From Anaerolineae bacterium (lineage in GTDB: Bacteria; Chloroflexota; Anaerolineae; SpSt-313), in the NCBI GenBank assembly GCA_034436375.1, contig DAOTVS010000286.1, forward strand, positions 1-53,313: a stretch of DNA of 53,313 bases, in the 5' to 3' direction. Position 1 is the first letter of the stretch. Each line of letters opens with the position of its first letter. Below are positions 887 to 1,508 of the stretch, in pieces. The notes below the pieces were generated by a model that saw only the letters and a program-made list of their open reading frames with translations, was not told the origin of the DNA and did not search any database. The translations under genes were made by a program, and so were the position numbers.

Positions 887-1373
887 TCGATGCCAGGGAA
901 CGGACTCACGCCTGGCACCTGATGTGCTGGATACCTACCATGCCGCCCCGCTGATCGCCCCGGCGCTCTACTGGCGGCTGATGTTCCCGCACCACCAGCG
1001 CCTCTGCGCGCATTTTGCCGCGCAGGGCCTGCGCACCCTCCTCCATTCCGACGGCGATGTGGCCCCGCTGATCCCGCTGTTCCTGGAGGCCGGGTTCGCT
1101 GGCCTGAACCCGCTGGAGGCCAAGGCCGGGCTTGACGTGCGCATGCTCAAGCCGCTCTACGGTGACCGGCTCATCTTCTTCGGCAACATCGACGTGCGCA
1201 AGCTCGCCGGCAGCAAAGGGGAGATCGAAGAGGAGATCAGCAGCAAGCTGTCCGTGGCCAAGGAGCATGGCGGCTATATCTACCATTCGGATCATTCCGT
1301 GCCCAACAACGTCTCGCTGGAGAACTATCGCTTCGCGATCGAGATGGTGAAGAAATACGGGAGATATGCGTAA
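837..1373 (+). pseudogene. Uroporphyrinogen decarboxylase (URO-D) family protein, C-terminal fragment only
   Basis: From about residue 30 the ORF aligns by eye to the last ~150 aa of the intact paralog at 37323-38495 (LHSDGD..EAGF..NPLE..GDRL.F.GN.D...HSDHSVPNN). About 230 N-terminal residues are missing and there is no convincing RBS. Confidence 0.6.
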
Positions 1374-1508
1374 TAAGTAATGCGTAATAAGTAAGGTCAT
1401 CACCGCGTGGTATACGCTGCTCAGCGTTAGCCTGCTACCAGTGAGCGTTATGCAGAGCAACATGCACTCCGCTACGATGACCTTACTTATTACGCATTAC
1501 TTATTACG
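1369..1508. repeat. Heptamer-armed palindromic element (copy E1)
   Basis: 5' arm 1369-1396 CGTAATAAGTAATGCGTAATAAGTAAGG is the perfect inverted complement of the 3' arm 1481-1508. The core 1397-1480 is 84 bp. The upstream stop TAA 1371-1373 lies inside the arm. Confidence 0.9.

Follow-up and report, generated by a model that had tools for sequence, protein, structure and literature searches.

The DNA analyzed here, referred to as the window, is a stretch of 53,313 nucleotides from an Anaerolineae bacterium (GenBank assembly GCA_034436375.1, contig DAOTVS010000286.1), with a G+C content of 65% and genes of housekeeping and sugar-metabolism type, almost all of which lie on the plus strand. The window contains no tRNA and no transposase. 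Between a URO-D-like gene, whose TAA stop codon is at 1371–1373, and the next gene, whose ATG is at 1523, lies a palindrome at positions 1369–1508, to which, as to most palindromes below, no strand is assigned. Its left arm starts within the stop codon and consists of two copies of the 14-mer CGTAATAAGTAAnn, followed by a diverged core, and its right arm stops 6 nt 5΄ of the GGAGG of the downstream gene. Judged from sequence comparison, this palindrome belongs to a non-coding intergenic repeat family whose members, about 140 bases long, occur in high copy number and are specific to the lineage.

A previous reading of the window, made from the sequence only, had reported 28 of 28 complementary nucleotides between the arms of this palindrome. 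Indeed, positions 1369–1396 (CGTAATAAGTAATGCGTAATAAGTAAGG) are the exact reverse complement of positions 1481–1508, and the inverted repeat extends inward to 57 nt with 82% complementarity. When the 147-nt focal stretch was folded as RNA, its energy was –74.3 kcal/mol, compared with –35.2 ± 3.5 kcal/mol for dinucleotide shuffles (z = –11). The element had the same sequence in five independent assemblies.

The source is an uncultured Chloroflexota population; among the YchF matches listed, which come from species-representative genomes, the top one reached 76% and belonged to a metagenome-assembled genome (MAG) labeled Anaerolinea. Exact-protein look-ups revealed that several metagenomes had yielded assemblies of the same population, 99.4–99.9% identical, and among homologs of the neighboring desulfidase-like protein in a sequence collection we found no relatives between 100% and 78% identity. 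Additional loci of the organism were retrieved using a hook taken from one arm (CGTAATAAGTAANNCGTAATAAGTAA), which gave 52 loci; of these, about 40 were GC-rich, with the majority derived from the window's own sample. The resulting data set comprises 332 kb of one species-level population, that is, the 53-kb window and 279 kb of other contigs.

A family of heptamer-armed palindromes

We identified period-7 arrays with our own phased-word detector (a 4-mer phased at 7 nt) and used block-shuffled sequence as a control. In the 332 kb, 106 phased arrays were detected compared with 16 in the shuffled sequence, and periods of 8, 10 and 11 showed no enrichment over shuffles. Successive GTAA tetramers spaced by 7 nt occurred 24 times in the window alone. 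The sequence-only reading had proposed that the repeat units change from locus to locus. The unit types that it listed were recovered, with that at 31063 being weak, and units do vary between subfamilies and in a few low-copy palindromes; however, about 80 of the 106 arrays share a (C)GTAA/TTAC(G) core. Among 92 arrays of the GTAA/GTGA type in the window and the non-redundant loci, 84 lay between genes, despite a coding fraction of 83%, and 66 were arms of core-containing elements rather than arrays standing alone.

In the same loci, neighboring arrays were arranged in the order GTAA...TTAC in 33 cases and in the order TTAC...GTAA in none, and the gap between paired arrays was 86–91 nt in 17 of the 33. 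The arms are inverted arrays of CGTAAnn heptamers, often paired into the above 14-mer, and every element has its GTAA array 5΄ and its TTAC array 3΄, whichever strand is read. Between them is a core of about 88 nt, which is asymmetric, homologous across copies and itself an imperfect hairpin, with the consensus AAGG-TCGCCATTgCGG..GaTGCTTtGCG..GGC..GAAAAGCAA..CGcaATGGCGACC-TT (the middle block can also be written GATGCTTTGCG).

A covariance model, termed R1, was trained on 36 copies; its E-values are rough. R1 matched 8 sites in the window and approximately 48 in the 279 kb of other contigs, including copies outside the training set, and matched none in five relatives and none in three unrelated heptamer-rich contigs. 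These results indicate that the focal palindrome (R1 score 114.8 bits, 1373–1504) is a member of a discrete family, whose density is about one copy per 7 kb. Its subfamilies are distinguished by their units, namely, the 14-mer type, the CGTAAAA/CGTGAAA type and the CGTAATC type. Mosaics are frequent, in which the motif GTCGCCATGG and a further array, often of CGTGATn units, stand outside each arm; the X motif, GTCGCCATGGCGAC, reads as a palindrome of 14 bp. Fold z-scores ranged from –8 to –11 for the elements at 1369, 18411 and 20484 and from –3 to –4 for those at 7510, 8833, 30923 and 37183.

Two more members of the 14-mer type lie in the window, one at 8833–8971 (110.3 bits, 8837–8967), whose first unit holds the stop codon of a GNAT gene (8835–8837), and one at 30925–31052 (81.8 bits, 30929–31056), whose right arm is shorter. 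The member at 7507–7647, which scored 72.1 bits with R1 (7507–7637), is built of CGTAATC units, and its left arm holds the stop codon of the upstream gene (7519–7521). Long CGTAAAA/CGTGAAA arms characterize the member at 20479–20680 (89.3 bits, 20525–20654), whose first unit contains the stop codon of a VanW-like gene and whose right arm stops 4 nt short of the ychF ribosome-binding site; its arms, previously given as nine and seven units, measured 9.7 on the left and 6.6 on the right. At 18370–18584 there is a mosaic, in which an outer array and an X motif are followed by a family member at 18414–18553 (117.8 bits, 18418–18549) and then by an outer TTACG array at 18559–18584. A diverged member at 37184–37309, matched weakly by R1 (34.7 bits, 37188–37312), carries the stop codon of an ADH gene (37186–37188) in its first unit.

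The copy at 28289–28436 (74.4 bits, 28295–28425) lay outside the training set. A one-armed reading of it was rejected, as a degenerate right arm is present at 28405–28436. The sequence AAGG-N5-CATGG of the element resembles a ribosome-binding site followed by a start codon and lengthens open reading frames upstream (28324 versus 28453; 7027/7038 versus 7072). At 28324, the AAGG-N5-ATG was rejected as a gene start in favor of 28453, because the SBP_bac_3 ortholog starts 43 codons later.

Related arrays were also found in other arrangements. At 6998–7042 on the plus strand, between the stop codon of an AP_endonuc_2 gene and a flavin-reductase gene, a solo module consists of a CGTAAnn array and then an X motif (GAGGTCACCATGG), without a partner arm. 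An array pair is located at 13577–13921 (minus strand) between two minus-strand genes, where about 10 units (13577–13650) adjoin the downstream gene's start and another 2 (13900–13921) are found at the stop of the upstream gene; a different palindrome, at 13663–13860, is nested inside this pair. The arrays at 35989–36140, CGTCAAA on the left and TTACGG on the right, are not complementary (z = –1.5), with no family core between them and no R1 match. The palindromes at 6032, 11334 and 35992 folded no better than shuffles (z approximately –1.5).

Arm conservation, covariation and slippage

The mean pairwise identity between copies was 84% for the arms and 53% for the core, and in copies not chosen by the hook the identity to the consensus was 78–82% for the arms and 63% for the core. 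Thus, because the arms are more alike between copies than the cores are, the previous statement that arms differ between copies does not hold within the main family, and applies only between subfamilies and to the few low-copy palindromes. Window arms matched the partner arms of other copies in the same subfamily about as well as their own partners, with the exception of the element at 1369.

We then counted base pairs on the family alignment, using the hairpin structure obtained from single-sequence folds. The fraction of paired cells was 85.6%, compared with 82.8% in shuffles and 30–48% when the partner was slid, and reached 88.7% in the arm helix alone. Cells changed on both sides numbered 59 against 33.8 ± 4.9 in shuffles (none of 500 shuffles reached 59), and pairs with double changes numbered 21 against 13.8 ± 2.0. 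For example, the spacer reads AATGCG...CGCATT in seven copies and AAACCG...CGGTTT in most others. Because the shuffles ignore relatedness, part of this excess of double changes may be inherited from variant masters. RNAalifold applied to a MAFFT alignment yielded no more than 6 pairs, owing to misregistration of the arms.

The proposal that arms remain complementary within each copy was accordingly borne out as covariation above shuffles but not as strict symmetry. Detected arm lengths were unequal in about 20 of the 33 copies, in steps of 7 nt, several copies had a partner arm of another unit type (e.g. L474, L444 and L477), and at 20484 the arms did not mirror each other in the order of their A/G unit variants. 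Assemblies of the one population further differed by whole units, as expected from the slippage that had been suggested: in one sample, the left arm at 20484 was short by exactly 3 heptamers (21 nt) with an identical right arm, and the two assemblies L441 and L489 differed by one 14-mer (14 nt) in one arm of their element, these differences being read from short-read assemblies, although the k-mers given in the contig identifiers exceed the length of arrays of up to 70 nt. Array units are gained and lost by replication slippage, each arm independently. Where both arms could be read across a single nucleotide polymorphism in an arm (L467 versus L472), the partner was unchanged, and at window position 6170 one assembly showed a single-base difference.

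The sequence-only reading had also called for concerted evolution of the two arms and for a comparison of orthologous loci. The excess of double changes agrees with the former, whereas its strict form is contradicted by the one-armed changes in the population. The comparison was run at 99.4–99.9% identity, at which unit losses were one-armed and the sequences were too close to test compensatory change. The independent assembly L081 begins at window position 20519, exactly within the left array of the element at 20484, which suggests that short-read assemblies are interrupted by the arrays as such or by variation in their length.

Spread of whole elements and the origin of the palindromes

Five copies at separate loci (L440, two in L449, L463 and L481) have in common a 24-nt insertion with its own small hairpin. 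Together with the common core, this insertion indicates that whole elements were copied from variant masters. Repeated de novo generation, which had been offered as an alternative to concerted evolution, is thereby ruled out for the main family, as its homologous core of about 88 nt, the fixed spacing and the insertion common to 5 copies are all incompatible with it.

The core is present in both orientations relative to genes. Element sites were tandem, convergent or divergent in 23, 4 and 2 cases, compared with 172, 28 and 27 in the background, which is roughly proportional. Relatives at 71–78% protein identity contained no period-7 arrays, and their spacers were compact; in the 76% relative, the livF-SBP spacer is array-free and 88 nt long, whereas in the window it holds a full element and the C-terminus encoded upstream is unchanged. 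The lack of arrays in relatives and the array-free livF-SBP spacer indicate that the family expanded within the lineage of the window.

A local, repeated origin of each palindrome had been the view of the sequence-only reading, according to which slippage combined with hairpin-templated repair or intra-element conversion keeps the arms in step. The observed slippage and the covariation above shuffles are in line with it, and so are the low-copy palindromes of the window with other units (9-mers at 4626/13678, 10-mers at 51974/53231 and 8–9-mers at 11334), an 8-mer palindrome immediately after ychF in a Caldilineales relative, and one phage contig in which short, unrelated loops are enclosed by palindromic pairs of three or more unit types. 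However, the homologous core, the fixed spacing, the common 24-nt insertion and the conserved arms of different copies can be explained only by whole elements sharing a common ancestor. Moreover, arms change independently in the population data, variant units are not mirrored in order at 20484 and in the phage contig L378, and unequal arms are the rule in some 20 of 33 copies. For the CGTAA family, the conserved core already refutes a local origin, which we regard as a very improbable account overall.

The explanation that we favor, and consider reasonably probable, is that the family is a REPIN/foldback-like (REPIN, a hairpin formed by repetitive extragenic palindromic (REP) sequences), non-autonomous hairpin element, probably mobile, whose arms keep their complementarity by descent together with constraint. 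Copying has carried entire elements to many intergenic sites, and arrays have grown and shrunk by slippage, one arm at a time, with the arms covarying. Copying would proceed through a single-stranded hairpin intermediate, in a REPIN/IS200-type or foldback manner, and the repeated GTAA/TTAC units might serve as recognition or cleavage sites. The complementarity within a copy would be derived mostly from palindromic masters and constraint on the arms, with a weaker contribution of compensatory change or conversion.

Several points weigh against this explanation. No transposase was found among the window genes, and a scan of the six frames of the 332 kb for HUH/Y1 motifs (HUH plus Tyr), which is insensitive and covers perhaps 7% of the genome, gave no candidate. 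No presence/absence polymorphism was seen among the population variants, and inspection of the window copies revealed no consistent target-site duplication, the ends being blurred by degenerate units or continuing palindromes. The copies are old, with cores only about 53% pairwise identical, and activity may have ceased. The high conservation of the arms could equally reflect a host function, and the one-arm hook biases the additional copies in a way that inflates the conservation of that arm. Finally, the gene calls behind the counts of array context were crude.

The arrangement of the elements between genes also raises the possibility that they serve the host as RNA. Under this hypothesis, a long AU-rich hairpin placed between a stop codon and the next ribosome-binding site acts in read-through transcripts as an RNase III processing site, an exonuclease barrier or a translational insulator, and selection on pairing keeps the arms complementary. 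At 1369, 20484, 37183 and 28289, the right arm ends 3–8 nt before GGAGG and the left arm lies at or in the stop codon; about 12 of 31 neighboring gene 3΄ ends are within 4 nt of an array, element stems are at least 25 bp, and the arm read first carries TAA in all three frames. The structural operon of the phage contig L378 has a like architecture, with other units, before each gene, and heptamer arrays located 5΄ of start codons have been proposed as translational signals (PMC4679880).

However, G-U pairs on the sense strand were not in excess over A-C mismatches (G-U pairs amounted to 78/873 for sense and 74/864 for antisense), and both strands folded equally well, with similar folding energies. 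Selection on the transcript of either strand in particular is therefore not apparent, which favors a hairpin acting at the DNA level or strand-symmetrically, although an RNA role is conceivable. The core takes either orientation relative to genes, copies also occur between convergent and divergent genes, and the orthologous spacers of relatives are without the element. The elements have no GC-rich stem followed by a U run, although ordinary terminator-like hairpins exist elsewhere in the window; a scan for intrinsic terminators over positions 1–20000 picked up no element, their stems being AT-rich and not followed by a T run. No Rfam 15 family matched in the window at or above the gathering score, the only hits being hairpins at 51970 and 53226 that resembled a microRNA model below this score. 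A promoter within the core was also considered and rejected, as the consensus has no convincing –35/–10 pair and the scan found none inside family members. Taken together, a host RNA function appears unlikely to us, although less so than a local origin.

The proximity to stop codons and ribosome-binding sites is explained by the hairpin-element reading in a different manner. Because of the GTAA-first order, an element presents TAA in all three frames to reading that enters from either side; the upstream stop is at or in the left arm at 1371, 7519, 8835, 20481 and 37186, and the palindromes fill co-directional spacers. The supply of stop codons and the nearness of ribosome-binding sites are consequences of the element design.

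The arrays could alternatively be double-stranded DNA binding sites for a nucleoid-associated protein or regulator, with the inversion reflecting the geometry of binding. The CGTAA/CGTGA core dominates the arrays, three heptamers make 21 bp or two helical turns, and TRF reported 21-nt super-periods at 13597 and 20479; the 14-bp palindromic X motif resembles sites of dimeric proteins. Covariation of the arms and pairing through the core are, however, not expected of independent binding sites, and unit number varies freely, no candidate protein was identified, and the arrays are missing from relatives that carry the same genes. Binding sites of this kind therefore seem to us a poor explanation, with little chance of being correct.

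Other palindromes and comparison with known systems

Palindromes with other units were rare, the 9-mer, 10-mer and CACAAAG types having 2–3 copies each in the 332 kb. The 9-mer palindrome (CACGGATTG) is present only twice, at 4620–4790 and at 13663–13860, and the two copies gave fold z-scores of –8.3 and –9.2. In the second copy, both termini carry an outward TTGACA with a near-consensus –10 box, each with 11/12 matches (minus strand, 13689 to 13662; plus strand, 13834 to 13863), whereas the copy at 4620 is without good –10 boxes; the motifs raise the possibility that 13663–13860 could be an outward-firing promoter cassette. A hairpin with units of about 10 nt (GGGAACTCAT) lies at 51967–52024, with a second copy at 53231–53295, in which 53231–53257 pairs fully with 53269–53295, as previously reported (27/27).

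Inverted pairs of heptamer arrays were also found in several GC-rich contigs. The region 850–6623 of L378 (IMG/VR 3300045947_000060; 67% G+C) encodes structural proteins of a siphovirus, among them a head-tail adaptor, a head closure protein and a tape measure protein as assigned by PHROGs, and at least 5 of its gene starts are preceded by a heptamer-armed hairpin followed by the same ribosome-binding-site block, GGAGCGCAGCGACCATG. Its unit types are TTTTCAG/CTGAAAA, GCTGTCG/CGAAAGC, GGGAGTA and TATTCGC, and variant units are located at the 3΄ end of both arms, that is, in unmirrored order. In the Caldilineales MAG L002, a palindrome of 8-nt units with a CCATGG center (11117–11272; units TTGGGAAA/TTGGTAGA ... 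CCAATCTA/CCAACCTA) directly follows the ychF stop codon. Heptamer arrays with any tested core were common in viral contigs; we drew no conclusion that the CGTRA core is special among them, as two control cores were each found at at least 120 loci.

Because of the hairpins in the L378 operon, the 8-mer palindrome after ychF and the four or five unit types in the window, we also considered whether heptamer-array palindromes represent a general, undescribed intercistronic class in GC-rich bacteria and phages. Such arrays could grow by slippage and be symmetrized on the hairpin, under selection for a common function at the RNA or DNA level, such as processing, insulation or translation restart. 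We raise this possibility only tentatively, and think it doubtful.

Additional features were noted in the window. An inverted repeat of approximately 165 nt with 96–97% identity (47–124 versus 2127–2204, extending to 2290; L083 631–795), unrelated to the heptamer elements, brackets a 2-kb segment with DUF6951, URO-D-like and desulfidase-like genes. At 9202, the window has 2 nt fewer than L083, which is from the same population, and an ABC ATPase gene is split in two frames; in L083 it is intact and encodes 257 aa. Between the ABC and MFS genes, positions 9807–10059 contain nested inverted repeats with no periodic arms (GTCATCCTGAGTA.../...TACTCAGGATGAC; CGTCATCCTGAGCAACGCGAAGGATCCCG and its complement). 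A perfect 26-nt palindrome with a 4-nt loop at 43371–43426, 60 nt upstream of a PhdYefM-PIN toxin-antitoxin pair (43488–44224), could be a terminator or operator.

If the hairpin-element reading is true, the lineage would contain several hundred hairpin copies with ends made of simple-sequence arrays, as extrapolated from 8 in 53 kb. In this natural system, one stretch of 140 nt would be subject at once to slippage, to hairpin constraint and to copying, and unit number already varies in the population data. In practical terms, the arrays appear to break short-read assemblies, provide stop codons to upstream genes and mislead the calling of start codons.

[quoted passage not shown] Like them, it has terminal inverted repeats and many dispersed copies with homologous internal sequence. 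The mismatch with MITEs asserted by the sequence-only reading was thus overstated, since MITE- or REPIN-type elements likewise have conserved inverted ends around a core that is less conserved, reach high copy numbers, lie in both orientations and are nested. Unlike MITEs, however, the family has termini composed of tandem arrays, and neither a target-site duplication nor a parent insertion sequence was identified in the window copies and genes.

The family can also be compared with intergenic heptamer direct repeats and, more widely, with long simple sequence repeats. The TAACTGA heptamer arrays of Beggiatoaceae, cyanobacteria and Bacteroidetes are direct, with only one inverted pair among 170 sets (PMC4679880). 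The similarities include period 7, stop-containing units, a strongly intergenic location, often just 5΄ of starts, and a patchy distribution across the phylogeny; however, those direct arrays share no core, whereas in the window the arrays make up both arms of a distinct palindromic unit. In addition, we observed direct arrays of the 14-mer CGTAATAAGTAAnn in unrelated AT-rich organisms (L442, L462, L468, L473, L478, L479 and L486; 26–43% G+C), often just 5΄ of a likely start codon.

The resemblance to REPINs is extensive, as both fold into a long hairpin from two conserved inverted ends and a fixed-length spacer of lower conservation, and both show extragenic copies in the hundreds, compensatory changes, solo remnants, mosaic clusters and lineage-specific occurrence; compensatory changes in REPIN hairpins have been described (PMC3116915). 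The ends of REPINs are single GTAG-tagged REPs, which have also been reported in Chloroflexi (PMC3733652). In contrast to REPINs, whose ends are single REP palindromes of 20–40 nt with a GTAG or CGTC tag, the ends of the present family are variable numbers of tandem 7- or 14-nt units; the CGTAAnn arrays are not palindromic in themselves, and do not constitute single REP ends. The REPIN system also has a single-copy REP-associated tyrosine transposase (RAYT) gene flanked by repeats, whereas no RAYT was found here, in an insensitive scan of 332 kb of an incomplete genome. Apart from the heptamer family, GTAG-headed REP-like hairpins (CGTAGTGGCGGCTCAAGCCGCCACTACG) occur in the window at 2074–2096, 2339–2361 and 17735–17762, one of them directly 3΄ of the stop codon of a MiaB-like gene.

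Neither for Chloroflexota nor for any other bacteria did literature searches reveal a description of hairpin elements with tandem-array arms. In eukaryotes, including Drosophila, foldback (FB) transposons are kilobase-scale elements with inverted repeats composed of tandem units of 10–31 bp. The present family shares with them arms made of tandem repeats, whose length varies between copies and between the arms of one copy, and differs in being bacterial and only about 140 bases long. The eukaryotic foldback transposon is thus the nearest structural analogue of this array-ended design.

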